Source: an uncultured delta proteobacterium | Lineage (GTDB): Bacteria; Desulfobacterota; RBG-13-43-22 | Reading direction: 5' to 3' | Length of the DNA: 64,000 nucleotides | Assembly (NCBI GenBank): GCA_963790475.1 | Contig: CAWBOS010000010.1 | Coordinates: 992,001 to 1,056,000 of the forward strand | Part shown: positions 3,400-54,600 of the stretch, one piece after another | How positions within the stretch are numbered: the stretch's first letter is position 1 | Layout of the letters: each line of letters begins with the position of its first letter | Notes under the pieces: model-generated | Seen by the model: only the letters and a program-made list of their open reading frames with translations | The model's database searches: none | What the model was told of the DNA's origin: nothing | Program-made: the position numbers and the translations under genes

Positions 3400-5658
3400 A
3401 TGAACGAAAAACATATCTTGAAGATTGCTGTCGAACTGAACCTTTCGCCCCAACAAGTCCAGGCTACGGCCGGACTCTTAAATGAAGAGGCCACGATCCC
3501 TTTTATCGCCCGCTATCGGAAGGAAGTCACCGGTTCCCTGGATGAGGTGGCGATCACCTCTATTCGGGATCGACTGATCCAGCTTTCTGAATTAGACAAG
3601 CGCCGTGAGGCCATACTAAAATCTTTGGAGGAACGCAATCAACTCACCGAGGATTTAAAACAGAAAATTATGGATGTCGAAGCCATGGTCGATCTGGAAG
3701 ATATTTATCTCCCCTATCGGCCCAAACGGCGGACACGGGCCACCATGGCCAAAGAAAAAGGACTGGAACCTTTGGCCCAAAAACTTTTCGATCAAGGCGA
3801 GATAGAACCCCTGGTCGAAGCCACGGCCTTTGTCGATCCTGAAAAAGGGGTGGAAAGCGCAGAAGATGCCCTGGCCGGGGCACGTGATATCATTGCTGAG
3901 TGGGTTAATGAAGATCAGACGGCCCGAGCCCGGATGCGCTCTTATTATGCTTCAAAGGCGGTTCTTAAATCCAGGGTGATATCGGAAAAAGAAGAACAAG
4001 GCATTAAATACAGGGATTACTATGAATGGGAAGAACCGGCGGCGAAAGCGCCCTCTCACCGTATACTGGCCATACGCCGGGGAGAGAAAGAGGATTTCCT
4101 CACCCTGAGGGTGGTTCCTCCGGAAGAGGAAGCCTTGGAAATTCTCGACCGCCTTTTTGTCAAAGGAGAAAGCGCGGCAGCCGAGCAGGTCCGAATGGCA
4201 GTCCATGACAGCTACAAAAGGCTCCTTTCTCTCTCCATGGAGACCGAGATCCGGCTTGATATCAAAAAACGGGCCGATGAGGAGGCCATTCGGGTCTTTG
4301 CCGAGAATCTCCGCCAACTGCTGTTATCCCCTCCGCTAGGCCAAAAAAATGTCCTGGCCATTGATCCCGGGTTCCGAACCGGATGTAAGGTGGTCTGTTT
4401 GGACCGGCAAGGCAAACTGGACCATCATGAAACCATTTTTCTTTTATCCGAGAAAGGCGTGGCCGACGCCGGGGCCAGGATCCTCGGACTGTGCGAACGT
4501 TTTCATATTGAAGCCATCGCTATCGGAAACGGCACGGCCGGCCGGGAAACCGAATCCTTCATCCGGGGCCTCAATCTCCCTTCAGGCATTCAAGTGGTTA
4601 TGGTCAATGAAAGCGGGGCCTCGATTTATTCGGCCTCTGAAGCCGCCAGAGAGGAATTTCCGGATCAGGATGTGACCGTGCGGGGTTCAGTCTCCATCGG
4701 CCGCAGACTGATGGACCCCCTGGCCGAACTGGTCAAGATCGATCCCAAGTCCATCGGGGTTGGCCAATATCAGCATGATGTGGACCAGACTGCCTTGAAA
4801 AACAGCCTTGATGATGTGGTGGTTCATTGTGTCAACCGGGTGGGAGTGGAAGTCAATACAGCCAGTAAACAGCTTCTGACCTATGTCTCCGGACTGGGGC
4901 CCGGGCTGGCCAAAGGAATTCTCGAGTTCCGTAATCAACACGGCCCCTTTCAATCCCGGGAAGATTTGAAAAAGGTCCCCCGACTGGGTCCCAAGGCCTT
5001 TGAACAGGCCGCCGGCTTTTTACGCATCCGGGAAGGGGAAAATCCTTTGGACGGCAGTGCTGTCCATCCGGAAAGTTATCCGATCGTTGATGCCATGGCC
5101 TCGGATCTGGGATGTTCGGTGGTTGATTTAATGGACGACGAAAATCTTCGTAAAAAAATCGACATTAACCGTTATGTCTCCGAACAGGTGGGATTGCCCA
5201 CGCTTCAGGACATCCTGGCGGAACTGGCCAAACCCGGCCGCGATCCGCGGGAGGAGTTCGAAATCGTCCGCTTTGCCGAAGGCGTGGAAAAGATCGAAGA
5301 TGTCAAGCCCGGAATGAAGCTTCCCGGCATCGTCACCAATATCACCGCCTTTGGCGTCTTTGTGGACATCGGCGTCCATCAGGACGGGTTGGTCCATATC
5401 AGCGAACTGGCCGACCGTTTCGTAAAGGACCCTGCAGAAGTGGTGAAGGTACACCAGAAAGTCAATGTAAGGGTCCTGGATGTGGACCTCCCCAGAAAAC
5501 GGATTTCTCTCTCCATGAAGGCCAACCAGCCCACGTCCGAACGTGCATCCAATGACAAAAAGAGGTCAATGGACGGAAGAAAACCGGGGAAAAAGGAGAA
5601 GCCCAAAAGCACCTTCTCCAATAACCCCTTCGCCGCCGCTTTTGGGAAAAGGGAGTAA
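3400..5658 (+). CDS. tex: Tex family transcriptional accessory protein (YqgF + HhH + S1)
   Basis: TIPFIARYRKE, AIDPGFRTGCK, IGVGQYQHDV, C-terminal S1 domain FGVFVDIGVHQDGLVHISE. Confidence 0.96.
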   Translation: MNEKHILKIAVELNLSPQQVQATAGLLNEEATIPFIARYRKEVTGSLDEVAITSIRDRLIQLSELDKRREAILKSLEERNQLTEDLKQKIMDVEAMVDLEDIYLPYRPKRRTRATMAKEKGLEPLAQKLFDQGEIEPLVEATAFVDPEKGVESAEDALAGARDIIAEWVNEDQTARARMRSYYASKAVLKSRVISEKEEQGIKYRDYYEWEEPAAKAPSHRILAIRRGEKEDFLTLRVVPPEEEALEILDRLFVKGESAAAEQVRMAVHDSYKRLLSLSMETEIRLDIKKRADEEAIRVFAENLRQLLLSPPLGQKNVLAIDPGFRTGCKVVCLDRQGKLDHHETIFLLSEKGVADAGARILGLCERFHIEAIAIGNGTAGRETESFIRGLNLPSGIQVVMVNESGASIYSASEAAREEFPDQDVTVRGSVSIGRRLMDPLAELVKIDPKSIGVGQYQHDVDQTALKNSLDDVVVHCVNRVGVEVNTASKQLLTYVSGLGPGLAKGILEFRNQHGPFQSREDLKKVPRLGPKAFEQAAGFLRIREGENPLDGSAVHPESYPIVDAMASDLGCSVVDLMDDENLRKKIDINRYVSEQVGLPTLQDILAELAKPGRDPREEFEIVRFAEGVEKIEDVKPGMKLPGIVTNITAFGVFVDIGVHQDGLVHISELADRFVKDPAEVVKVHQKVNVRVLDVDLPRKRISLSMKANQPTSERASNDKKRSMDGRKPGKKEKPKSTFSNNPFAAAFGKRE

Positions 5659-6037
5659 AGAATTCTTTGGCATCGGCAAATTCATTCCTTAGGGAAAGAT
5701 ACCGTCCGGCTTAATCCCTGGAGATGAAGAATGTAATGTAAACCTGGTCTAAACTTCCCCAAGAATTTGAAATCTTTTCCGGGTGGAATGAAAAATTTTC
5801 CCGGTCGGGAGAGCGTCATTTTGTTATTAAAATATTTTTGGGGGTTGGTAAGCAATTCCAGGGCAAATGAAAATATTGACTATGAGACCAGTCAAATAAT
5901 ATCCTATTATAATTACTATATTTTACTTGATCTCTCTTCGGCCTGAGGCGGATTTGCAGAAATGGACCCTTTCTTCTTTCCTTTCTGGCATATTTCTTGG
6001 ATTAATGATGCCCATCAGATAGTTATTACCCCTTCTC

Positions 6038-6064
6038 TAAAGTTTTTTTCCCATCTGCCGATAA
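6038..6064 (+). promoter_or_regulatory. sigma28 (FliA/SigD-type) promoter upstream of the pilus operon
   Basis: TAAAGTTT-N11-GCCGATAA, an exact match to the FliA consensus. Confidence 0.8.
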
Positions 6065-6284
6065 ATAAGTAACCATCAGGATACATTTTTGCTCTATGGA
6101 TACTTATGCAGATGGAAATCCTTCATTCTTAATTTAATTAACCATAGAAGGAAAAAACAAGGAGGAGGTGATCCAAAAATTTTAAGTAAGCCAATTTTGT
6201 TTAAGCTGTTTCAAGACTTGGGACCTGAATTTAACCTTTTACCGATTTAAACCATTTCAAAAAAACTCTTAGGAGGACCTAAAA

Positions 6285-6761
6285 ATGAAAAAAAGAGTAA
6301 TCCTTTTAGCGGTTTTAGCCGCTATCGGCATTCTGGCCCTGAGCAGTGTCTCCATGGCCGCAACCAAGACCAACAACCTTAACGTAACGGCCTCCGTGGC
6401 TGCAAACTGTAACATCCAAAGCGTCGTCGACGTTGCCTTCGGTGCTTATGATTCAACAAGTGCTACTGATCTGGATGCTGCCGGTTCTATGACTTTTCGA
6501 TGTACAAAAAATACAGCCTATAAAACCTATCTCGTCGGCGTCAGGCAGATGGTCGGGGCTGTTAATGCGGATAACCTTAACTTCGAACTTTATTCCGATA
6601 ACGGACGCACGACGGTCTACCCCAGCGACAACTCAGGCGGCAGCACTCCAGCCCCGAGTAACGCCGCTATAACCTCAGATATCTACGGCCGGGTCACAGC
6701 TCTTCAGGATGTCAGTGTGGATACTTATTCAAGGGTCTTGACGGCCACCGTAGAATATTAA
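6285..6761 (+). CDS. Spore coat U (SCPU)/Csu-type major pilin
   Basis: Signal peptide; LNVTASVAANC...VAFGAYD...C...LNFELY...IYGRV...Y..VLTATVEY pattern; first gene of a chaperone-usher cluster. Confidence 0.88.
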   Translation: MKKRVILLAVLAAIGILALSSVSMAATKTNNLNVTASVAANCNIQSVVDVAFGAYDSTSATDLDAAGSMTFRCTKNTAYKTYLVGVRQMVGAVNADNLNFELYSDNGRTTVYPSDNSGGSTPAPSNAAITSDIYGRVTALQDVSVDTYSRVLTATVEY

Positions 6762-6794
6762 AATGGGCCAATGACAGTTATTCAATTTCAAATG

Positions 6795-6829
6795 AAAAAG
6801 GGTGAGTGAAAAGACTCACCCTTTTTTTT
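6795..6829 (+). terminator. Rho-independent terminator after the major pilin
   Basis: aaaaagggtgagt-loop-actcacccttttttt hairpin followed by a U-tract. Confidence 0.8.
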
Positions 6830-6857
6830 CTTTAATTTCAAGAAAAAGGAAGCGACT

Positions 6858-7649
6858 ATGAAACCAATTAAAAACAGTCGGAAACAGATCAAGTTTTGGG
6901 AAATAATTATCTTGGGGTTTTTAATGACCTTGTTCCTGGCCAATAACACGGCAGCGGCCAACTTCGATATAAAACCCATCAAAATTTACCTGGATCCCCA
7001 AAACAAAATAGAAAAACTTACACTGAATAATTCCAGCGAGGAAGATTTGACCGTACAGATCAGGGGTTATCAGTGGACGCAAAATGACAAAGGTCAGGAT
7101 GTCTATCAGGAGACCAGGGATTTGATCATTTTCCCCAAGATTGTCACCCTCAAAACAGAGGAAGAGAAGATTATCCGGATCGGCACCAACCTGAATTCCG
7201 GTTCAACGGAAAAAACCTATCGTATATTTGTGGAAGAGATACCCTCCCATGAAAAAACCCAAGACAAAGGCTCCACCGTTCATATGTTTATGAAGATCGG
7301 GGTTCCCTTATTCATAAGCCCGCTTAAAAAGGAAGAAAAAGGGGCTATCGAAGCCGCCAACCTGAAGAAAGGGAAAGCCGCGATCAAGGTGCAAAACAAA
7401 GGCAATCTTCATTTAATGGTAACCACCATCCAACTCAAAGGGGAAAATACCGACGGGAAAGAAATCTTTTCCGCGTCCATTGGCGGATGGTACATCTTAA
7501 GCGGCTTATCCAAGGATTATGAGGTCGCTATCCCCCAGGATGTATGCAAAAACATAACAAAACTTAATATTGAAGTAAAAACGAATAACAATATCATCTT
7601 TAAAGAACAGATCCCGGTGGAAAAACCCATGTGCGGACAGTCCATTTAG
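6858..7649 (+). CDS. Periplasmic fimbrial chaperone (PapD/CsuC-like)
   Basis: Signal peptide; FPKIVTL..EEKIIRIG, EKTYRIFVEEIP, IGVPLFISP, N.GNLH; lies between pilin and usher. Confidence 0.88.
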   Translation: MKPIKNSRKQIKFWEIIILGFLMTLFLANNTAAANFDIKPIKIYLDPQNKIEKLTLNNSSEEDLTVQIRGYQWTQNDKGQDVYQETRDLIIFPKIVTLKTEEEKIIRIGTNLNSGSTEKTYRIFVEEIPSHEKTQDKGSTVHMFMKIGVPLFISPLKKEEKGAIEAANLKKGKAAIKVQNKGNLHLMVTTIQLKGENTDGKEIFSASIGGWYILSGLSKDYEVAIPQDVCKNITKLNIEVKTNNNIIFKEQIPVEKPMCGQSI

Positions 7650-7729
7650 AATAGCACATGCCTCCGCCGGAATTAATAATAGTCCAAAGGTCAAAGCAGA
7701 AAGCCTTGGCCTGTTTTTATCGAGACTTG

Positions 7730-10201
7730 ATGGAAAATCAAATTTCCAGATTTATTATTTCAAAAATTAATCTGGCAAAAAACCTTGCCGGATTTTTTTC
7801 ATTAAAAGACTATACCCTTTTTCCCCAAAAAAAGATTAAACCCATTTTCTTTTTTTTTATCTTGCCCCTTTCCCTAAACCTTTTTCCCCCCCTTTCGGTG
7901 CAGGCCATGGAAACCATCATCCCTGTTGTTTATCTGAATGAAGAGCAAAAGGGAGAATTTTTTATCAAAATGACAGAAGATCATGATTTTCTGATCAAGG
8001 TGGAGGATCTAAAAGAAATCGGTTTGTTGGACCCCCAAGGTAAATTATATAACATTGAAGGAATATCCTACTTATCCCTGAAATCCATACCCCAAATCAA
8101 AATATCTTTTGATGAAGGCAAGCAGGCACTCAAGATACAAGCCCCTCCCGAATTCCTGGCCAAAACTGTTCTTGACTTTTCCAATAAGCGGCCCAAAAAC
8201 ATTAACTATCCCAAGGACAATAGTTTTTTTTTAAATTATGGAATCCAATACTCGGCCGGCACCGGATTCAGGTTCGACAATATTTCGACCACCACTCAAC
8301 TCGGAGTCAGGGCGGGCAATTTTATTTTTCTATCCGATTCCATCCTATCGGCGAGTGAAACGGAAACCAAGTTTAACCGCCTGATGACCAGCATTACTTA
8401 TGACGATAGACAGCGGATGAACACCTATGTTTTTGGTGATCTGTATGCAACATCGGGCAGTCTTGGATCTTGTCTTCTTCTGGGGGGCTTGAGTTTTTCG
8501 AAAAATTATTCCGCCGATCCTTATATTATCAAAAGACCGGTACAAGGATATCAAGGGTATGTAAACACACCATCGGAAATCAGTATATATCTTAACGGAG
8601 CAAGAATTGGAAATGAACGAATGCCCGCCGGGGGATTTGATCTGAGAAATATAATGGGTTATAACGGTCTCCAGGATTTGGATATCGTAATTAAAGACGC
8701 CTTTGGACGCGAACAGCACATTGCCAATCCCTTTTATGTCTCTGATTCCCTTTTGGCCAAAAGTTTTCATGACTTTAGTTATAATATCGGTTTCTTAAGA
8801 GAAAATATCGGTTCTAATAAGGACCAGTATAACGACCCGGTCTTTATAGGCTTTCACCGCTATGGCTTGACCAATAACCTGACCATTGGCGCTAGTGGAG
8901 AAGCCGGAAGCGGGCTGTATAATTTCGCTCCATCCGTTGCCTATGGAAGTCAATTGGGTATTTTTGAATTCGTCTTGGCCGGCAGCCGAAATGAAAAAGA
9001 AAAAACCGGTTTCGCCGGTTCAGCCGATTATACGTTTAATATCAAAAGATTTAATGCGAGAATTGGGGCTACGAGTTACTCGGAAGATTATTCCACCCTT
9101 TCCCAAGCCACCAGTCCCAATCCAGAAAACATAGAAAAACCAAAGCTGGAATTCGGCGCCGGTTTAGGTTTTGGAACAAAATCTTTCGGATCTATGGCTC
9201 TCAATTATACAAAAACAATTAAATATAATAATAAAGAAAAAGAGATGATGGGTTTAATGTATTCCAAGGGCATCGGGCAAAAATTTTCTTTGACTATTTC
9301 AATGGACCAAACCAGTGAAAGTGGATCGGATAACAATAAAAGCGAGCTTGGATTTTTTGTCAGCCTAACCTACTACCCCTGGAAAGAAACCATCATGACC
9401 AACACCGGCATGAGTGGGGATAGTTTCCGCGGAAACTTTCAAATTCAAAAAAACGCTCCTATTGGCGAAGGTTACGGTTACAGAGCCGCGGTTGATATGA
9501 GGAACGAAAAGGATGGACTCGAAACCAGTCTCAGACCCTATTTTCAGTATAACGGAATGTATGGAATATATTCCACTGAAGTCTCAGCTCAATTCGGGAG
9601 GTCCCAAGAAATTCAAACCTATCAATTCAACGCTTCGGGGGCCGTCGTTTACGTCGGCAATAGTTTCGGCTTCACCCGTCCGATCGATGACAGTTTTGCT
9701 CTAGTCAAGGTAGCCCAGGTCCCCGGTGTGCGAGTCTATCACAATAACCAGGAGATCGGAAAAACGGACCAGTTTGGTAAACTCGTGGTGCCGAATTTCC
9801 ATTCCTATGATGCCAATCAGATCAGGATCGACGATAAGGACATACCTTTGGATTATGCAATTACCGATGTAACCAGATATATTTCCCCAGCGTGGCGCAC
9901 CGGCACTCTGGTCAAGTTTGAGGCCAAGAAAGTTCAGGCCTTTACCGGGAGGCTATTGATTGAAAAAGAAGGCAAGATTCTGCCTTTGGAATATCATCGG
10001 ATCACCATGAAGTTAAACGGCAAAACGCTTACCTTTCAAACCGGCCGGGATGGGGAGTTTTTTATTGAGGATGCTTTAGCCGGCAGTTTTAAGGCGTCTT
10101 TCAAATATGAGGGGAAAGTGCATACCTTTGATATTAACATACCCAAAAGCGATGAAATCATCATCGATGCAGGAGAAATCCATGTCCAAGTACAGCCTTA
10201 G
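7730..10201 (+). CDS. Outer-membrane fimbrial usher (CsuD-like); start uncertain (7658 or 7730)
   Basis: ~820 aa; FLNY, RLMTS..YD, GD....GSLG...LGGLSFSKNY, HRYGLTNNLT, RPIDDSFALV, YDANQIRID..DIPLD. Confidence 0.9.
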   Translation: MENQISRFIISKINLAKNLAGFFSLKDYTLFPQKKIKPIFFFFILPLSLNLFPPLSVQAMETIIPVVYLNEEQKGEFFIKMTEDHDFLIKVEDLKEIGLLDPQGKLYNIEGISYLSLKSIPQIKISFDEGKQALKIQAPPEFLAKTVLDFSNKRPKNINYPKDNSFFLNYGIQYSAGTGFRFDNISTTTQLGVRAGNFIFLSDSILSASETETKFNRLMTSITYDDRQRMNTYVFGDLYATSGSLGSCLLLGGLSFSKNYSADPYIIKRPVQGYQGYVNTPSEISIYLNGARIGNERMPAGGFDLRNIMGYNGLQDLDIVIKDAFGREQHIANPFYVSDSLLAKSFHDFSYNIGFLRENIGSNKDQYNDPVFIGFHRYGLTNNLTIGASGEAGSGLYNFAPSVAYGSQLGIFEFVLAGSRNEKEKTGFAGSADYTFNIKRFNARIGATSYSEDYSTLSQATSPNPENIEKPKLEFGAGLGFGTKSFGSMALNYTKTIKYNNKEKEMMGLMYSKGIGQKFSLTISMDQTSESGSDNNKSELGFFVSLTYYPWKETIMTNTGMSGDSFRGNFQIQKNAPIGEGYGYRAAVDMRNEKDGLETSLRPYFQYNGMYGIYSTEVSAQFGRSQEIQTYQFNASGAVVYVGNSFGFTRPIDDSFALVKVAQVPGVRVYHNNQEIGKTDQFGKLVVPNFHSYDANQIRIDDKDIPLDYAITDVTRYISPAWRTGTLVKFEAKKVQAFTGRLLIEKEGKILPLEYHRITMKLNGKTLTFQTGRDGEFFIEDALAGSFKASFKYEGKVHTFDINIPKSDEIIIDAGEIHVQVQP

Positions 10202-10652
10202 TTTATTAATGGTAATCGCTTCTTTTTTTCTTATAGGGGAAGCTTATGCCGCTACCAATGACTGTAATTTCCAAACAGTAACCGATGTCAACTTTGGAAG
10301 TTATGATGTCCTTTCCAGTCTTAATAATGATTCAACAGGAGGTTTTAGAGTAGATTGTACTGCCACTTGGACTACAGTTACCTCTTCCATCGGCGTAAGC
10401 CCCAATTCCGGAGGATTCAATCCCAGGAGCATGAAATTAACCAGCGGAACGGATTTGCTCGATTACTATCTTTATACCAATTCCTCCCGATCTACAATCT
10501 GGGGAGACGGCACCCAGGGGTCCTCAACCGTCACCGTCAGTATTCAAAAAAACCACCCCTGGACCGGAACGATCTACGGACGAATTCCACCTGGACAAAA
10601 CGTCGGGGTTGGGAATTATGGAGAAGTCCTGGTTATTACGATAAACTATTAG
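10182..10652 (+). CDS. Second SCPU/Csu-type pilin subunit (single domain, probable tip or minor pilin)
   Basis: ATG at 10182 after SD aggaga; signal peptide, C..VNFGSYD, RVDC, LDYYLY, IWGDG, IYGRIP.GQ..G.Y...LVITINY. Confidence 0.85.
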   Translation: MSKYSLSLLMVIASFFLIGEAYAATNDCNFQTVTDVNFGSYDVLSSLNNDSTGGFRVDCTATWTTVTSSIGVSPNSGGFNPRSMKLTSGTDLLDYYLYTNSSRSTIWGDGTQGSSTVTVSIQKNHPWTGTIYGRIPPGQNVGVGNYGEVLVITINY

Positions 10653-10739
10653 GGAGATTAAAAGAAAGAAATTGGTAGCTGAAGTCTAAAGTCTTCTATC
10701 CCCAAAAACACTCCAGACATTCACCTCCGAATTAAAGGC

Positions 10740-11261
10740 TTATTTCTTTTTCCGCTGAAAATCCAGATATTCTATCGGTTGGGCTGAAATGGAAAAGGGC
10801 CAGGAATAGGTCCCTGGATTCGCATTCTCGGGGAGAATGCCTTTATAGCTTAATTCAACCACCATTTTACCATTGCGAGTATAAGGTTGACGAATAAAGG
10901 CATTGCCTGAATCAAGCTGAACCGGACGGTCCAAGCCCTGAATATGGACCTCCTTAAAAGGTCCTAAGGATCCTTCAAAGGCCAGTAGGTATCCACTCGG
11001 ATTGTTGCTTTCCACCTCCAGAAGGGAAGCTGAAGGTAAAACAATATAACCTCTTTCAATATCCGGTTTCGTAAGGGTGATCTCCGGTTGCTGATAAATG
11101 ACCTTCAGGCGAAGGCGCGGAGTAACTACCGCTTTGACTGTTATGTTGGGTGAGACTGTGCCAGCTAAAGATTGGCTGACGAGCAGGGAGGCACTGAAGG
11201 ACAAAATCAAGGCCAGGGTAGTAATACAAAGACGATACCTTTTTAAGTAGGGAGAATACAT
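10740..11261 (-). CDS. Hypothetical secreted protein, paralog of 11369..11857 (pilin-like, Cys-less mature part)
   Basis: Signal peptide; aligns along its length with the neighbouring ORF (DIERGY/DVQRGY, FEGS..PFKEV.IQGL..PVQL.SG.AF..QP, PG.YSWP.SIS..PI); start at 11261 (ATG) or 11276 (TTG). Confidence 0.75.
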   Translation of the reverse strand: MYSPYLKRYRLCITTLALILSFSASLLVSQSLAGTVSPNITVKAVVTPRLRLKVIYQQPEITLTKPDIERGYIVLPSASLLEVESNNPSGYLLAFEGSLGPFKEVHIQGLDRPVQLDSGNAFIRQPYTRNGKMVVELSYKGILPENANPGTYSWPFSISAQPIEYLDFQRKKK

Positions 11262-11368
11262 AAGGTTGAGACCCAATGGTAACTCCTTTCTAAGCTTATG
11301 TTTTTGGTAGATAACCCAATAAGATCTTGCAGATTTGATTTTAGGCCTTGGAAAAATTTCAAGAGAAC

Positions 11369-11857
11369 TTATATCGGATCGACGGAGATAGAGAGGGGCC
11401 AGGAGTAGGAACCTGGTTTTGTATCTTCGGTGAGGATAAACCGGTAACTCAAATCCACATACACCTTCCCTCTTACAGACGGCTGGTGAACAAAGGCATG
11501 ACCGGAAGTAAGCTGAACCGGATTGGCCAGCCCTTGGATCTGAACCTCTTTAAAAGGCCATATGGATCCTTCAAAGTTTATCATATATCCGTTGGTGGAG
11601 TTGGTTTTCAGTTCCAGGCGGGAGGCCGAATGAACATCGAGGTAACCCCTTTGAACGTCCGTTACAGTGATCGTGATCTCCGAGGCCTGTGAGAGGAGAT
11701 TAAACTGCAGGTAAGGCAGGACTCTGGCAGAGACGGTCAATCTTGCCGTCCTCATAACGGCGTAGGTTTCCTGAGCACTCAGGAAAGCCATTAGAAACCA
11801 TGCCGCTACGAGGGCAGCAAAACCAATCGAACACCTTTTCAGTTTAGGAGGATACAT
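11369..11857 (-). CDS. Hypothetical secreted protein, paralog of 10740..11261
   Basis: Signal peptide ending TYA; clear tandem paralogy. Confidence 0.75.
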   Translation of the reverse strand: MYPPKLKRCSIGFAALVAAWFLMAFLSAQETYAVMRTARLTVSARVLPYLQFNLLSQASEITITVTDVQRGYLDVHSASRLELKTNSTNGYMINFEGSIWPFKEVQIQGLANPVQLTSGHAFVHQPSVRGKVYVDLSYRFILTEDTKPGSYSWPLSISVDPI

Positions 11858-12106
11858 AGGCTTGGGACCTGTTTTGTAACCTTCCCCTTTTCTGTTACTT
11901 CTTTCTTAATATACTCCCCGTCAAAAATCAAACAAAAACTATTTTTTTTTGGCTTTTTAACGATAACGCCAAATCGCCGTCAGATTAATAAGGGAACCCT
12001 TTGGGGATTTTTGAACATATTCCCTCCCCCAATGTGATTAAGGGGAGGGAATTTAGGGTTAGACGCTTATTTTGACATCATTAAAAATTATTCATTTAAT
12101 TTAAAA

Positions 12107-12122
12107 TGCAATTTTAGCGCCA
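12107..12122 (-). promoter_or_regulatory. sigma54 (-24/-12) promoter for the paralog pair
   Basis: Minus strand reads TGGCGC-TAAAA-TTGCA with exact GG-N10-GC spacing; palindrome ggtaaaat-N6-attttacc about 90-110 bp upstream (12210-12231). Confidence 0.7.
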
Positions 12123-12363
12123 AATAGTTGCCTCCCAACTAACTTATTAATAAAACAAATAAATTACTAAACGGTAATCTTTCCTTTTGTTTTGAAACGG
12201 GCAAAAATGGGTAAAATGGAAGGATTTTACCTAAAATATGCTAATTTTTACATAAAAGTGGAGGATTTTTGACACTTTGGGATTTATTGGCAGGGGTTGC
12301 GCTCTTGCCTTGAAAAAGGTTCTTTAGAAAAGATAAAATAATCAGCCCTACCTTATCAACCAC

Positions 12364-12390
12364 TAAAGTTAGGGGCAAGAGAACCGATAA
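12364..12390 (+). promoter_or_regulatory. sigma28-type promoter
   Basis: TAAAGTTA-N11-ACCGATAA (2 mismatches to the FliA consensus). Confidence 0.6.
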
Positions 12391-12596
12391 AAGAACTAAC
12401 GCCTGGAGTTTTAATTTCTATGAGGGATCGTAACTATATTAGGTACTTCGACCGTCTACCCCCCACTCCTTTACCAAAGGGGAGAGAGGGTTTTCGCATA
12501 TTCAAATAAAAACTTTGCTGTATTAGTTCAGTCAAGTTAAAAAAAATCTACAGCCCGCCGTCAAAGGGAATAATCCTGAATATTCAAACTGTGAAT

Positions 12597-12734
12597 ATGA
12601 ATGTGGAAGAAATATCAGACTGGCTGCATACCCGGCCGTCGACCATTTACAGCTTTTGCCGCCGCGGAGAGATCCCTTGCATCAAAATCGGATGGCAATG
12701 AGGGTATTGCCACAGACCCACCCGGGCAACCTGA
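12597..12734 (+). pseudogene. Excisionase-like helix-turn-helix (HTH_17) gene remnant
   Basis: MNVEEISDWLHTRPSTIYSFCRRGEIPCIKIGWQ* ; TGA at 12699-12701 where the family has W in G.QWRF. Confidence 0.65.
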
Positions 12735-12980
12735 GACCATTGCCCCCAGGGGCCTTTCCCAAGGAGAACCTGATTAGCAGAAAGGCCAGCCAGGTACTGA
12801 TTGGTTGGACGTCGATCAGTACCTATTCTTACATTGGTTATTGCCCGCTTTGCCTATGGCAAAAATATTGCTTTGTTTTTCTTCAAAAATTGAATTAATG
12901 ATTGGATTACATAGTATAGGGGTAATATGTCAAGACACGGGAGAAGGCGATAGAAGATTTCTGAGGAGGCGAATGATTAC

Positions 12981-13808
12981 TCACGAAGCGAAAAATTTTT
13001 CTGCCTCTATCCTTGCCCCGTAAAGTTTTTCACCGATAACGGCCAATTCTTTAAAGTCTATCCCGAGTTCCAGGAGAAGGGCATCATGCTCCATCGTCCA
13101 CAGCCCATCGTCTTCAATCCGTGGGCTGTACATTCGGGACATGGCTTCGGCCAGGGAGACAATGGCAATGGAATCCCTGAATTCCTTCGCTTGCGAAGGA
13201 CTGTGATGGCACCTGGTGGTTGAAATAATCTCCGATGGTAAACCGGCTTCCTCTGCCAGCCAGGCCCCGGCATCGGCATGCGTACAACCGAAAAGCTCCA
13301 TTTCTTTTTCGAGCATATCGTCGGTGGTGGGAATTTTGAAAAATTCATCATGGTCCATTTTATAAAAAATAATCCTTCCGATGTCATGAAGCAGGCCTGA
13401 AAGAAAACACTCCCGGGGAGAAGTCATGGTAATACGGTCTGAAATGACTGAAGCAATTAAGGCCACCTCATAACAGTGAATCCATAAAAATTTAATGTTG
13501 AAAGTGCCGGTATGGGGGAATATGGTCATAACATTCATGCCGACCGCTATTGATTTGATCCTTTCAAAACCCAAAAACATAATGGCCTGTCTGATATCCC
13601 GAATCTGACCGGAATGCCCGAAAAAAGGTGAATTAGCTGCCCTTATGACCCGTTCGGCAATAGCTTGGTCGTGGGCGATCAAACCATCAAGATCTTCCAG
13701 GGAGCAATCCTTTTTTTGAACAATAGAGAGGATCTTTCCCACCAACACCGGAATGGTGGAAAGGCCTTCGATATTTTCAATAAAATCCTTTACCTCGGAA
13801 GCACTCAT
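12981..13808 (-). CDS. HDOD domain protein
   Basis: LSTIP, DQAIAERVIRAANSPFFG, IRQAIMFLG, GLLHDIGRI, H..AGAWL, HH. Confidence 0.9.
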   Translation of the reverse strand: MSASEVKDFIENIEGLSTIPVLVGKILSIVQKKDCSLEDLDGLIAHDQAIAERVIRAANSPFFGHSGQIRDIRQAIMFLGFERIKSIAVGMNVMTIFPHTGTFNIKFLWIHCYEVALIASVISDRITMTSPRECFLSGLLHDIGRIIFYKMDHDEFFKIPTTDDMLEKEMELFGCTHADAGAWLAEEAGLPSEIISTTRCHHSPSQAKEFRDSIAIVSLAEAMSRMYSPRIEDDGLWTMEHDALLLELGIDFKELAVIGEKLYGARIEAEKFFAS

Positions 13809-14003
13809 TCTTTTTATTCCAAGCTGTTTAATCTTTTATTATCCTGAGGCTTATCTTTTTCGATCTCTTACGGTCCGGGATCCCGGTTACTTTCAATGGT
13901 CAGGCCTAGTCTGTGTCCCCCTTTATGAGGAAGCCTCCTTTTTATAAATCCATACAATAGATTTTTGACGATTTTTTCTGAATCATTTAGGACTACCCTT
14001 TAT

Positions 14004-14031
14004 TTATCGGCACAATACTTGAAAAACTTTA
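14004..14031 (-). promoter_or_regulatory. sigma28-type promoter upstream of the HDOD gene
   Basis: Minus strand reads TAAAGTTT-N12-GCCGATAA (SigD-like spacing). Confidence 0.7.
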
Positions 14032-14048
14032 AAAGATCGCTCCCGTCA

Positions 14049-15731
14049 CTATCGGGTTAAATGCCGGTACTTGAGGCGATGAGGCTGATCGGCCGCAGCT
14101 CCCAGGCGGGCCTTCCGGTCGGCTTCATACTCGGAATAGTTGCCGTCAAAGAAAAGGCACTGACTCTCCCCTTCAAAGGCCAAAATGTGGGTGACGATTC
14201 TATCTAGAAACCAGCGGTCATGGCTGATCACCAGGGCGCAGCCGCCGAAATTCTCCAGCGCGTCTTCCAGGGCCCTCATGGTATTGACGTCCAGATCATT
14301 GGTCGGTTCGTCAAGCAGAAGCACATTGGCCCCTTCTTTCAAAATACGAGCCAAGTGGACCCGGTTACGCTCTCCCCCGGAAAGCAGGCCCACCTTTTTC
14401 TGTTGATCGTTACCGGAAAGATTGAACCTGGAAACGTAGGCCCGGGAGTTGATTTCTCTGCTGCCCAGGGTGATAATATCCTGTCCCCCGGAAATCATTT
14501 CCCAGATTGTTTTTTCGGGATCGAGCACATCACGACTCTGGTCCACATAGGCCAGTTTGACCGTTTCTCCGATCTTGAGCGTACCCGAGTCCGGCTTTTC
14601 CTGGCCGGTTATCAAACGAAAGAGCGTAGTTTTGCCGGCACCGTTGGGGCCTATGACCCCTACGATTCCTCCCGGGGGTATATTAAATGAAACCTTTTCC
14701 ATGAGAATCTTCTCTCCATAGGCTTTGCTTAAGTTATCGGCCTGGATGACCAGGTTCCCCAATCGTGGGCCGGGGGGAATATAGATTTCCAATTCTTTAT
14801 CTCTTTTTTCAATCTCTTGATTTATCAGGGCCTCATAAGAATTAATCCGGGCCTTGGCCTTGGTATGCCGCCCTTTGGGGGACATGCGGATCCATTCTAA
14901 TTCGTGCTGTAATGTCCTCTGGCGTTTGCTTTCGCTTTTTTCTTCCTGACGCAGCCGATTCTGTTTTTGCTCCAGCCAGGAGGAATAGTTACCCTTCCAG
15001 GGGATCCCCTCCCCACGGTCCAGTTCCAGTATCCATCCGGCCACGTTGTCTAAGAAATAACGGTCATGGGTTACGGCAATGACGGTCCCGGCATACCGCT
15101 GAAGGTGGCTTTCCAGCCAGGCAACAGATTCGGCATCGAGGTGGTTGGTAGGTTCATCCAAAAGGAGAATGTCCGGCTTTTGAAGCAAAAGCCGGCAGAG
15201 GGCCACCCGCCGCCTTTCTCCCCCAGACAAGATCTTGACCGCTGTTTCCCCAGGCGGGCAACGCAGGGCATCCATGGCCATATCCAGTTTGGAATCCAGT
15301 TCCCAGGCATCTTGGGCCTCCAGCTTTTCCTGGACTTCGGCCTGGTGTTCGATGAGCTTATCCATAGCCTCACCCGACATCGGTTCGGCAAATTTTTCAT
15401 TTATCCGGTTAAACTCATTTAGCAGATCAACCGTGGCCTGGACCCCTTGTTCCACTATTTCTTTCACCGTTTTACTGTCGTCAAGGACCGGCTCCTGTTC
15501 CAGCAAACCCACGGTATGCCCGGGGGAAAGGATGGTCTGGCCGTTGAAATCCAGGTCTTTTCCGGCCAGGATTCGGAGCAGGGAGCTTTTTCCCGATCCG
15601 TTCAAACCCAGGACTCCTATTTTTGCCCCGTAAAAATAAGAGAGGGACATATCTTTCAATACCGGTTTTTTATCATAGTATTTGCTGACTTTGATCATTG
15701 AATAAATGACTTTATTCGGTTCAGTAGCCAT
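14049..15731 (-). CDS. ettA: Energy-dependent translational throttle protein EttA (ABC-F)
   Basis: Two ABC domains (GLNGSGKS, GPNGAGKT, LSGGE, LLDEPTN); SYFYGAKIGV, ELDRGEGIPWKGNYSSWL. Confidence 0.95.
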   Translation of the reverse strand: MATEPNKVIYSMIKVSKYYDKKPVLKDMSLSYFYGAKIGVLGLNGSGKSSLLRILAGKDLDFNGQTILSPGHTVGLLEQEPVLDDSKTVKEIVEQGVQATVDLLNEFNRINEKFAEPMSGEAMDKLIEHQAEVQEKLEAQDAWELDSKLDMAMDALRCPPGETAVKILSGGERRRVALCRLLLQKPDILLLDEPTNHLDAESVAWLESHLQRYAGTVIAVTHDRYFLDNVAGWILELDRGEGIPWKGNYSSWLEQKQNRLRQEEKSESKRQRTLQHELEWIRMSPKGRHTKAKARINSYEALINQEIEKRDKELEIYIPPGPRLGNLVIQADNLSKAYGEKILMEKVSFNIPPGGIVGVIGPNGAGKTTLFRLITGQEKPDSGTLKIGETVKLAYVDQSRDVLDPEKTIWEMISGGQDIITLGSREINSRAYVSRFNLSGNDQQKKVGLLSGGERNRVHLARILKEGANVLLLDEPTNDLDVNTMRALEDALENFGGCALVISHDRWFLDRIVTHILAFEGESQCLFFDGNYSEYEADRKARLGAAADQPHRLKYRHLTR

Positions 15732-51668: not shown

Positions 51669-54600
51669 TTATTTAATATCCCAGTTCAGGTCACCAACGG
51701 TTCCAGGTGATCCCTGAGAGGCAAGGGTGGTGCCGTTCATCAGCCAGATCATGACCTGGCCGGTGGATTTATTCCGCCAGAGGATGTCGGACTTGCCGTC
51801 TCCATTGTAATCTCTGGTACCCCTGATCTCCCAGTTCAGGTCGCTGACGGTAGCCGGTGAGCCCTGGGAAACAACTGTGGTGCCGTTCATCAGCCAGATG
51901 TAGACCTGGCCGGAGGTAGCATGCCTCCAGAGGATGTCCGTAGATCCATCTCCGTTGAAATCACCGACACCCCTGATCTGCCAGTTCAGGTCGCTGATGG
52001 TACCCGGCGAACCCTGCGAAGCAAGGGTAGTGCCGTTCATCAACCAGATGAAGACCTGGCCGGTGGACTTATTCTGCCAGAGAATGTCCGCAGATCCGTC
52101 TCCGTTGAAATTACCAACATGCTTGATGTCCCAGTTCAGGTCGCTGACGGTAGCCGGTGAAGCCTGGGAAGCAATGATGGTGCCATTCATCTGCCAGATT
52201 TCGACCTGGCCGGTGGACTTATTCTGCCAGATAATTTCCCTTTTCCCAACACCCTTGATATCCCAGTTCAGGTCGCCGATGGTAGCCGGTGAGCCCTGGA
52301 GAGCAATGGTGTCGCCGTTCATCAGCCAGATTTCGACCTGGCCGGTGGCCTTATTCCGCCAGACAATATCCGCGACACTGTCACTGTTGAAATCACCGAC
52401 ACCCCTGATCTCCCAATTCGGATCGCTGATGGTAGCCGGCGAACCCTCGGCAATAAGGGTGGTGCCGTTCATATTCCAGATTTCAACCTGGCCGGAAGCG
52501 GCATTCCTCCAGACGATGTCCGCAAATCCATCACTGTTGAAATCGCCTCCTACGGTTACAGTGTAGGCTAAAGGTGACGAGGTCGCGTCGGCTGTCGCTG
52601 ACAGAGGGTTGGTTCGCACATCAACCGTTATTTGATAAATACCAGACGGCATTGAAAGAGGCATCGTCCATGTATTACTGGTGCTATAATCCTGCACCGT
52701 AGTTCCATTTTTCTGGAATCGATACTGGTAGCTGTTAGAACCGACACCAGTGGCAGTAAACGTGACCGTCGTATTATTAGTCTGCGGACTCGGCGGGCTA
52801 ACGGCTAACGTCACATCCGTAGCCGGAGGAGGAACGATTTCAAAGGCGAGTTCCCCGGTGACATCCGGAGCCACCGGCGCCGCACCGGTGCCCGCATCGA
52901 CGGTCAGCGTGTAACTGCCGGCAGGAAATCCGGTCATGGTCCAGGTAGTGAGTGTGTTCCAATCCTGTACCACCGTGCTGACCGGAACACCCGTACTGGT
53001 CGGGACATAATTAAGGGTGAATCGATAATGGTCGGAGCCGGTGGCCGGTGAGATGGCTCCCACGGTGAAGACCACCGCCTCTGCCGGCGCCGGACCACCA
53101 TTGGTATACCAGAATGGTTTCCCCAGGGTTGTGTTGGGCAAAGGGTTGCCCGTGGGGGGAGACATCAAAAGCGGATTAAAGACAATGGGCCGCATCATGT
53201 CATTTTCTTCATGGCCCAGCAGGTGGCAATGCCAGACATATTCCCAGCCGAAGTCGGTCACCACGTTGGAGATGCCGGCCGGTGTCGGCGTGCCTGGCAC
53301 AGGGGCCGGCTGTATATAATTGGCCGTGGAACCCGCCGGTGTGGTCACGTCCATTAGCCGGGTGCTCCGGGGAATCGGGAAAGGAAGCGACATGTGCCGC
53401 GGCTGGACCGCCAAGATAAGGTCCGTGAACGGTTCCGTCCGGACGGTTTCCTTCCAGCCCAGTTCATTAGCCTCGGGCGGCAACATGGTGTTGGTAAAGT
53501 CCACCCGGTTGACCACCTGCAGGTTGGCCAGGTGGAAGTGAACGGCATGGTTGTCTACGCCGAGGTGGGACAAGCGGAAGACATAGGTCTGGCCGTCGTT
53601 CCAGAAGTCAGAGGGCGGATCGATATACTGGGCGATGCCGGGCACTGCGGGCGCGGGGGGCGGGGGGACAAGGGTCGCTTCCAGCGGTGTAGGGGTGGTG
53701 CCGAGCATGACGTTCATTCGCCCGTAGTTTATATCGAACCCCTCGGTGATGTTCTTCATGCCAATCACCGAATCATTGGTCAGCCGGGCATCGGCCGTAG
53801 CGCCGGTGCCGCCGCCGCCGGTGAGGTAGACAAAAGGAGCCTTGGTGTAGCCCGAACCTCCGTTTGTAACCTGGATATGGGCGACAGCGCCGCAGGTGAG
53901 TCCTGATGCGGCTGTAGCGCCCGCGCCGGTAGGATCACCCAATGCGGTGGTGATCGTTACGGCCGGATTCGTGGCCGCCGTGCATTCCGCGGTATAACCT
54001 GCACCCGGGTCCGTCACCGTGATGGCGGTAACTTGGCCGCCGGATATGCTGGCCACGGCTGTGGCTTGTACGCACGTCGTATTATTGAGGGCACCACAGC
54101 CTATCGGCGCGACGATGGCGACCGTCGGAGGGAGGGTATAGGGGGTGGCGGGGGAGGTAGCTCCAAGGGTCACCGTTACGGCCGTAACGCCATCAAGCGC
54201 TGCCGTTGCCGCTGCGCCTGAGCCATTGCCATCGGCGCTGATAAAGCTAACGGCCGGTGCCGTGGTATAACCGGAGCCTCCAAGCGTAGTGAGGACCCGA
54301 CTAACGGACTGGACACCTCCCACGAGGTTCACGGTCGAGTCCGTGTTATTGACAAAGGTGTCGACATTTGCCGTGCCAAAAGCCGGATTATAGGCAGCTT
54401 GCTTCACGATAGGCGGGGCCTGCGTGGCACCAAAGGCTTTGGGCAGGGCCGCTTGCAGTGCCCCCAGGTTGAAGGGCGCAGCGCCATTCGCCGAGACCCG
54501 AATCTGCATGATCGTGCGGGTATTGGGCCCGAAACCGGCAGGGGTCGTGGGCGCGCCGCCGGTGGATCTCATATCCGGATCGCCGGTGTAGAGGTCATAG

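Follow-up and report, generated by a model that had tools for sequence, protein, structure and literature searches.

We describe here a surface-appendage island in a 64,000-nt window (positions 992,001-1,056,000 of contig CAWBOS010000010.1, assembly GCA_963790475.1) of the 6.34-Mb genome of an uncultured delta proteobacterium (G000). Coordinates are those of the window, meaning the whole stretch of DNA that was analyzed, unless another locus is named. Between tex and an ettA-type gene lies a four-gene operon with the order SCPU-chaperone-usher-SCPU (6285-10652, + strand), and convergent to it are two paralogous genes, A and B, whose products are 47% identical to each other. We consider it probable that the island holds an archaic Csu/SCPU-type pilus operon that belongs to the sigma28 regulon together with an HDOD gene and an HTH_17 gene, and that the paralogs are periplasmic partners of its chaperone-usher machine. 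The genes and motifs of a preliminary description of this DNA were all recovered at the positions it had given.

Sigma28-Type Motifs of the Pilus Operon and the HDOD Gene

The first gene of the operon (6285-6761, +) encodes an SCPU-family pilin (PF05229, E 1e-20) that has both of the Cys residues invariant in the SCPU alignment and is probably the major subunit. Downstream are the genes for a PapD-like periplasmic chaperone (6858-7649, +; PF00345, E 3.2e-16), an outer-membrane usher (7658-10201, +; PF00577, E 4.5e-32), and a second SCPU-family subunit (10107-10652, +; PF05229, E 6.8e-25), for which an inner Met is probably the true start. The product of this last gene is 181 amino acids long and contains one SCPU domain (residues 48-178). 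No two-domain tip subunit of the CsuE type turned up in the island, the rest of the genome not having been searched for one.

Upstream of the operon, a motif at 6038-6064 (+) reads TAAAGTTT-N11-GCCGATAA and has no mismatch to the sigma28 consensus TAAAGTTT-N11/12-GCCGATAA, which is that of enteric FliA promoters and has 16 fixed bases. A second match with no mismatches, this one with an N12 spacer, is the motif of the HDOD gene (14004-14031, - strand; gene at 12981-13808, -; PF08668, E 1.4e-45, 155.6 bits). When the whole 6.34-Mb genome was scanned, 28 rows had at most two mismatches, 8 had at most one, and 2 were perfect; both perfect matches are those of this island, where they are 8 kb apart, intergenic, and each facing a gene. 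By our own estimate, about 0.006 perfect matches would be expected by chance genome-wide. A third motif, with two mismatches, precedes the HTH_17 gene (12364-12390, +).

The eight sites with one mismatch or none precede genes for two flagellins, a methyl-accepting chemotaxis protein (MCP), CheW, an RR-RR-HD_5 protein, the SCPU operon, the HDOD protein, and a 98-residue open reading frame (ORF) without a family match. Because the same motif stands before flagellin, MCP, and CheW genes, these sites serve as an internal positive control for the consensus. The genome itself contains fliA (248 bits, above the cut-off), rpoN (436 bits), and three Flagellin_N matches, so that both sigma factors invoked in the preliminary description, as well as flagellar genes, are present. 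Its proposal of a link between the late flagellar regulon and both the Csu-type operon and the HDOD gene is supported by the perfect motifs, their conservation (below), and the presence of fliA. We regard the sigma28 wiring of the island as well supported by sequence, with the promoters themselves being predicted. The HD_5 gene, a double-receiver gene of the HD-GYP type (G000 C12:562415-563905), has a one-mismatch motif, and the predicted regulon thus includes more than one HD-family signalling gene.

Conservation of the Motifs in Related Loci

A second genome of the same genus (G008, locus L014) shows synteny with the window across the operon, both paralogs, and the HTH_17 and HDOD genes. The sigma28 motif before the G008 SCPU operon is also perfect, with a spacer that differs at 4 of 11 positions and a changed flank upstream of the motif; the HDOD and HTH_17 sites of G008 have one and three mismatches to the consensus, respectively. 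Directly upstream of the operon in G008 are a flagellin gene and an additional SCPU gene, with sigma28-like motifs of three and two mismatches. In a further congener (G011, locus L015), a three-mismatch sigma28 motif, the sole one on that contig, precedes an intact HTH_17 gene. The window's own HTH_17/excisionase-type ORF (12591-12701, +) is truncated at a conserved Trp: it shares 75% identity with residues 1-36 of the intact 66-residue protein of G008 and ends at a TGA where the G008 ortholog has Trp. The G008 ortholog matches TIGR01764 and that of G011 matches PF12728. What had been called an HTH remnant is thus a truncated HTH_17 gene, as the intact ortholog makes clear.

We also annotated 13 loci from outside the genus, which belong to other families of the phylum. 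A sigma28-like motif with at most two mismatches abuts the first SCPU gene in two of them (L035 and L038), against an expectation, again our own estimate, of about 0.35 such hits over all 13 loci together. Sigma54 motifs with at most one mismatch are properly placed before the first SCPU gene or a member of the paralogs' family in L034, L036, L037, L039, and L043; L046 has one with two mismatches, and a sigma54 activator gene adjoins the locus in 5 of the 13. In L039, L041, L043, and L044, the interval that separates the short-form family member from the sigma54 activator gene has no GG-N10-GC site; in L041 and L043, it contains a GG-N11-GC look-alike. Taken together, the motifs and adjacent activators make it seem that control of these operons by alternative sigma factors is common in the phylum and that, within this pattern, the genus of the window uses sigma28.

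Several other features of these loci deserve mention. In L038 (G241), a one-mismatch sigma28 motif (12083-12109, +) faces a gene for a 796-residue protein without a Pfam family (12175-14565, +); since this motif points away from the SCPU operon, two sigma28-like promoters would diverge there. Two large PAS hybrid histidine kinases are encoded between the HTH_17 and HDOD genes of G008 (L014 12631-17750), and two are encoded near the paralog in G011 (L015 227-5733); the window has none. The same region of G011 contains a TonB-dependent receptor, a YfiR-like gene, a CHASE8 kinase, and a triple-receiver GGDEF gene. The ushers of L037 (2171-5440, -) and L044 (12215-15214, -) are fused to a C-terminal OmpA (peptidoglycan-binding) domain.

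The Paralogs Belong to a Family Linked to Chaperone-Usher Loci

Paralog B (10740-11276, -) and paralog A (11369-11857, -) are short forms of one beta-sandwich family, for whose domain neither Pfam nor NCBIfam has a model. A single-sequence query with paralog A over the genome contigs returned no relative. A word-indexed search gave 24 close relatives, and an exhaustive search at E<=1e-3 gave 792 representatives, which are clusters at 50% identity; 273 of these reach E<=1e-10. Neither paralog has a Cys after its N-terminal hydrophobic segment, so the description of the pair as Cys-less is accurate.

Within a phylum sample of 401 genomes, the family is present in 16 and SCPU in 23, and 15 of the 16 family-positive genomes are also SCPU-positive; among the 378 genomes without SCPU, a single one has the family (related genomes in these counts are not independent). 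In 10 of the 13 distant loci, the family gene is in or beside a cluster with a chaperone and/or usher gene, and in 4 of those 10, it is an internal gene of the operon, with the subunit genes on one side and the chaperone gene on the other. In one more locus, it stands behind two SCPU genes only, and the remaining two (L042 and L045) show no visible chaperone-usher link. The family gene is linked in G008 as well as in G011, where the SCPU gene is a fragment at the contig end. Linkage to SCPU, chaperone, or usher genes is therefore seen in 13 of the 15 other genomes, from at least 10 taxonomic families. The question raised at the outset of whether homologs of the pair accompany Csu-type chaperone-usher loci is answered in the affirmative by these counts.

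The architecture of the family was examined in the best 150 of the 792 representatives, to which the following counts apply. Eighty-eight are short (<=215 residues, like the window paralogs) and 62 are long (>=216 residues). Of the 62 long forms, 57 score above the curated threshold of NF053729, a c-di-GMP (cyclic di-GMP)-binding motif related to MshE, with one to three copies each; one long form has a receiver domain in place of this module. Residues 86-141 of the long form P0030 align to residues 6-61 of Vibrio cholerae MshE (5htl, E 2e-5), and P0030 also aligns to Thermus thermophilus PilF (E 8.7e-12). The stretch aligned to MshE corresponds to the c-di-GMP site described in PMC5013675, which has 53 residues, made up of two 24-residue motifs and a 5-residue spacer. 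The tandem motif pair occurs in none of the 88 short representatives, and the window paralogs have no match to an MshE-type module in NCBIfam or Pfam. In the long forms, a hydrophobic helix lies between the c-di-GMP modules and the conserved C-terminal domain, which must for that reason be outside the cytoplasm.

Weighing the Role of the Paralogs

We read the paralogs as partners of the chaperone-usher machine in the periplasm, with an accessory or regulatory role, on the basis of the linkage of the family to chaperone-usher loci, its lack of SCPU homology, and the architecture of the long forms. Several points weigh against this reading or against the sigma28 assignment that goes with it. The family is absent from 8 of the 23 SCPU-positive genomes, from which it follows that it is accessory and not core or essential to the pathway. 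The putative accessory or regulatory role is drawn from linkage and long-form architecture, and the short forms may differ. The best structural matches of paralog A are subunits of donor-strand-exchange fibers, and its mature N-terminus, LTVSARV, has an alternating hydrophobic pattern like that of a donor strand. As for the promoters, those of the island are predicted from sequence; the consensus is enteric and validated here solely by its position before flagellin and chemotaxis genes; and G008 and G011 are congeners, so that conservation of the motifs covers a short evolutionary distance.

The alternative that survives best is the one proposed in the preliminary description, namely that the paralogs are Cys-less alternative subunits, handled by the same chaperone and usher and expressed from a sigma54 promoter, with the composition of the fiber set by whichever sigma factor is active. 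Tight linkage to chaperone-usher loci is what this proposal would predict, and the fold gives it further support. The AlphaFold model of paralog A (predicted local distance difference test score, pLDDT, of 85.3) consists of an N-terminal helix, an unstructured segment at residues 33-49 that contains the donor-strand-like sequence, and a beta-sandwich. Foldseek returned no PDB match for this model at E<=0.001. In VIA-align, the top matches are the CanA cannulae (Z 9.2) and the Hyper2 tubes (Z 8.2), both of which are donor-strand fibers, followed by many chaperone-usher pilins, such as FimA (6.7), CfaB (6.2), and CsuA/B (5.5). Among the 30 language-model neighbors of the paralog are an SCPU cluster (0.93) and a DUF4402 cluster (0.92).

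Other evidence argues against a subunit role. Aligned with 29 SCPU proteins by hhalign, the family scores a probability of 86.8% with signal peptides and 2.7% without them; the apparent SCPU homology of the paralogs is thus an artifact of the signal peptide, and the family is not SCPU by sequence. In agreement with this, the paralogs have no Pfam SCPU match and lack the Cys pair that is invariant in the SCPU alignment (C42 and C73). The Z scores of 5.5-6.7 to chaperone-usher pilins are within the range of a common beta-sandwich arrangement. Complex prediction for the chaperone (residues 30-263) with paralog A (residues 33-162), entered as alignments and run without controls, gave 0.21 and 0.20 against a mark of 0.32, a result that does not weigh on the question of binding in either direction. 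Finally, the 57 long members with c-di-GMP modules are tethered to the membrane behind them, an arrangement that is impossible for a polymerizing subunit.

The sigma54 part of this proposal fares no better in the window. The motif upstream of paralog A, TGGCGCTAAAATTGCA (12107-12122, -), has a GG-N10-GC core with one mismatch, and its sequence is specific to this genome. With up to two mismatches allowed, the window contains 30 matches to the sigma54 pattern compared to 23.2 in shuffled sequence, and 10 of 100 shuffles reach 30; with one mismatch or none, there are 4 matches against about 2 expected by our own estimate, and two of these four sit within a 150-bp coding repeat. In G008 and G011, no GG-N10-GC site with up to three mismatches is found upstream of the paralog ortholog, and the sequence surrounding the window's motif has no counterpart there. 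No sigma54 activator gene is found among the genes of the island, activators elsewhere in the genome not having been searched for. The claimed promoter is accordingly a chance-level match that neither congeneric locus shares. A block at 11916-11975, 60-120 nt upstream of paralog A, is conserved in the window, G008, and G011, and we take it to be a likelier control region than the sigma54 motif; it is a candidate promoter or operator. We note that a convergent family member in G085 is preceded, at about 245 nt, by a one-mismatch sigma54 motif, which resembles the spacing in the window, and that rpoN is in the genome and sigma54 activator genes adjoin several distant loci. Given the G085 motif, sigma54 control of the paralogs in the window is still a real possibility, albeit a minority one. 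As for the paralogs being alternative fiber subunits of the same usher, we find no direct support and regard it as unlikely.

The repeat that holds two of these four sites (51679-52544), and that gives rise to several look-alikes of the sigma54 pattern, is a tandem array of about 3.7 copies that are 80% alike, with overlapping readings of 132 and 282 bp, and is apparently coding.

The paralogs could also have no part in pilus biogenesis and be proteins of the periplasm or cell surface, for instance glycan-binding ones, with their position a by-product of a variable surface-structure island. Carbohydrate-binding modules match the model of paralog A at the same level as the pilins (Z 5.5-6.7), two distant loci show no chaperone-usher neighbor, and the GC content of the island (0.36-0.46) is below that of its flanks. 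Linkage across so many families, the location of the gene inside the operon in four loci, and its presence in a single SCPU-negative genome all speak against mere coincidence of position, and we judge this explanation to be quite improbable. It is very improbable that the sigma28 matches arose by chance or lack a function, with ordinary sigma70 promoters serving the operon and the HDOD gene: although the region and the motif are both AT-rich and sigma70-like hexamer pairs are plentiful (22 versus 15.2 in shuffles), the only two perfect 16-base matches of the genome lie 8 kb apart in intergenic positions facing genes, both motifs are kept in G008 despite diverged spacers and flanks, and the same motif precedes the flagellin, MCP, and CheW genes.

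Proposed Mechanism

Under the reading that we favor, in which the pilus operon is part of the sigma28 regulon and the paralogs are periplasmic partners, FliA, freed once flagellum assembly ends, would direct transcription of the pilin, chaperone, usher, and second subunit genes from 6038 and of the HDOD gene from 14004. In relatives, the FliA holoenzyme would also read the HTH_17 gene. An adhesive pilus and a signalling protein would in this way be coupled to late flagellar expression. HDOD proteins have been linked to motility control in pseudomonads and Xanthomonas (PMC6543031). The paralogs would be exported to the periplasm, where these beta-sandwich proteins would act on the chaperone-usher machine; they may become part of the fiber, serve as its primer or cap, or restrain the chaperone. 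Through the family domain, the long forms would place pilus assembly under the control of cytoplasmic c-di-GMP; in the short forms, including those of the window, the domain would itself be controlled through its own transcription unit. We infer the transcription starts, the dependence on FliA, the periplasmic location, and the effect on pilus assembly from the DNA and its relatives.

A bolder version, which we offer tentatively as possible but doubtful, is that the family is a new inner-membrane and periplasmic component of the pathway that relays c-di-GMP to a pilin-like gating or priming domain, and that this genus has lost the sensor, duplicated the gene, and brought the pilus into the sigma28 regulon.

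Operon Leader and Other Features of the Island

Directly 3' of the first SCPU gene is a strong 14-bp hairpin followed by a T run (6794-6827, +), likely a partial terminator. It looks like the partial terminators of fimbrial operons that yield surplus major subunit, and the same outcome would be expected for the first subunit here. The leader of the operon is about 210 nt long (6072-6284, +) and contains blocks conserved with G008 (L014 5620-5835). One of these blocks is the anti-Shine-Dalgarno-like AAGGAGGAGGTGATCC near 6160-6176; no start codon follows AAGGAGGAGGTGATCC. The predicted folding of 6072-6290 is no better than that of shuffled sequences (z +1.37), and an Rfam scan of 5600-14100 (E<=1) returned no riboswitch, only two sub-threshold chance matches. 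An identical 11-mer, with TAACCTT 5-6 nt further on, occurs at 6217-6240 (+) and at 11861-11884 (+). The first copy is in the sense orientation in the operon leader, and the second is antisense over the start codon of paralog A, which means that the leaders of the operon and paralog A mRNAs could pair or that the two could share an operator. The genome contains six copies of the 11-mer against about three expected, and a 10-base version is kept at both sites in G008.

The island is bounded on the left by tex (3400-5658, +) and on the right by the ettA-type ABC-F gene (14049-15731, -), and a 1.1-kb AT-rich spacer separates the paralog pair from the HDOD gene. There are no tRNA genes in the window and hence no sign of a tRNA-targeted island.

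Comparison with Known Systems

The closest known systems are the Csu pilus of Acinetobacter baumannii and CupE of Pseudomonas aeruginosa, in which, as in the window, a single operon encodes the usher, a PapD-like chaperone, and subunits of the SCPU type. The window operon differs from these in being minimal, with four genes; in ending in a single-domain subunit where they have a two-domain tip of the CsuE type; and in having a sigma28-type promoter. Csu and CupE are under two-component-system control. We know of no member of the linked beta-sandwich family from the Csu and CupE operons, which were not searched for it. Published work on these archaic chaperone-usher systems includes PMC9452303, PMC4654587, and PMC10104325.

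With regard to regulation, the consensus and spacing of the motifs are like those of the enteric FliA late flagellar regulon, and the predicted regulon of this genome counts flagellins, an MCP, CheW, and signalling proteins of the HD type among its members. Unlike the enteric regulon, it would extend to a chaperone-usher pilus operon. Among the matches listed for FliA or sigma28 together with chaperone-usher systems, no title or abstract reports a chaperone-usher operon driven by sigma28.

The long forms of the family share their module with the MshEN/GSPII receptors, such as V. cholerae MshE, T. thermophilus PilF, and Escherichia coli NfrB. Known MshEN fusions are to ATPases, glycosyltransferases, and "other domains" (PMC5013675), whereas the long forms combine the module with a membrane helix and a periplasmic beta-sandwich inside a chaperone-usher operon. 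Among the titles and abstracts listed in literature searches, none connects SCPU or components of chaperone-usher assembly with MshEN or c-di-GMP.

Two receptors from other systems offer a comparison. LapD is a cytoplasmic c-di-GMP receptor that governs a periplasmic event (inside-out signalling), and MrkH is a c-di-GMP receptor that governs the output of type 3 fimbriae and acts on transcription. Both are working analogies to the long forms only: there is no sequence relation, and the domain set of LapD differs. The likeness of paralog A to the archaeal donor-strand fibers CanA and Hyper2 (root-mean-square deviations of 4.5 over 124 residues and 4.8 over 125 residues) should be read with the 7-10% sequence identity, the other domain of life, and scores near those of typical best chance matches in mind.

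Chaperone-usher assembly is taught as being free of inner-membrane or cytoplasmic input. If our tentative proposal for the long forms is true, the family would provide the first component of a chaperone-usher pathway that senses a second messenger and is anchored in the inner membrane. Its 792 clusters at 50% identity, usually with MshE-type receptors, point to a possible and unexplored post-translational control of archaic pili, which are the most widespread class of chaperone-usher pili and include the clinically relevant biofilm pili Csu and CupE. The family also supplies a set of proteins for c-di-GMP-binding and pilus assays. Motility and adhesion are usually under opposed regulation. Transcription of a pilus operon by the sigma factor of the flagellum, if confirmed, would be a counter-example; under the bolder version above, the cell would build an adhesive pilus as the final step of building the flagellum in place of a switch between the two.

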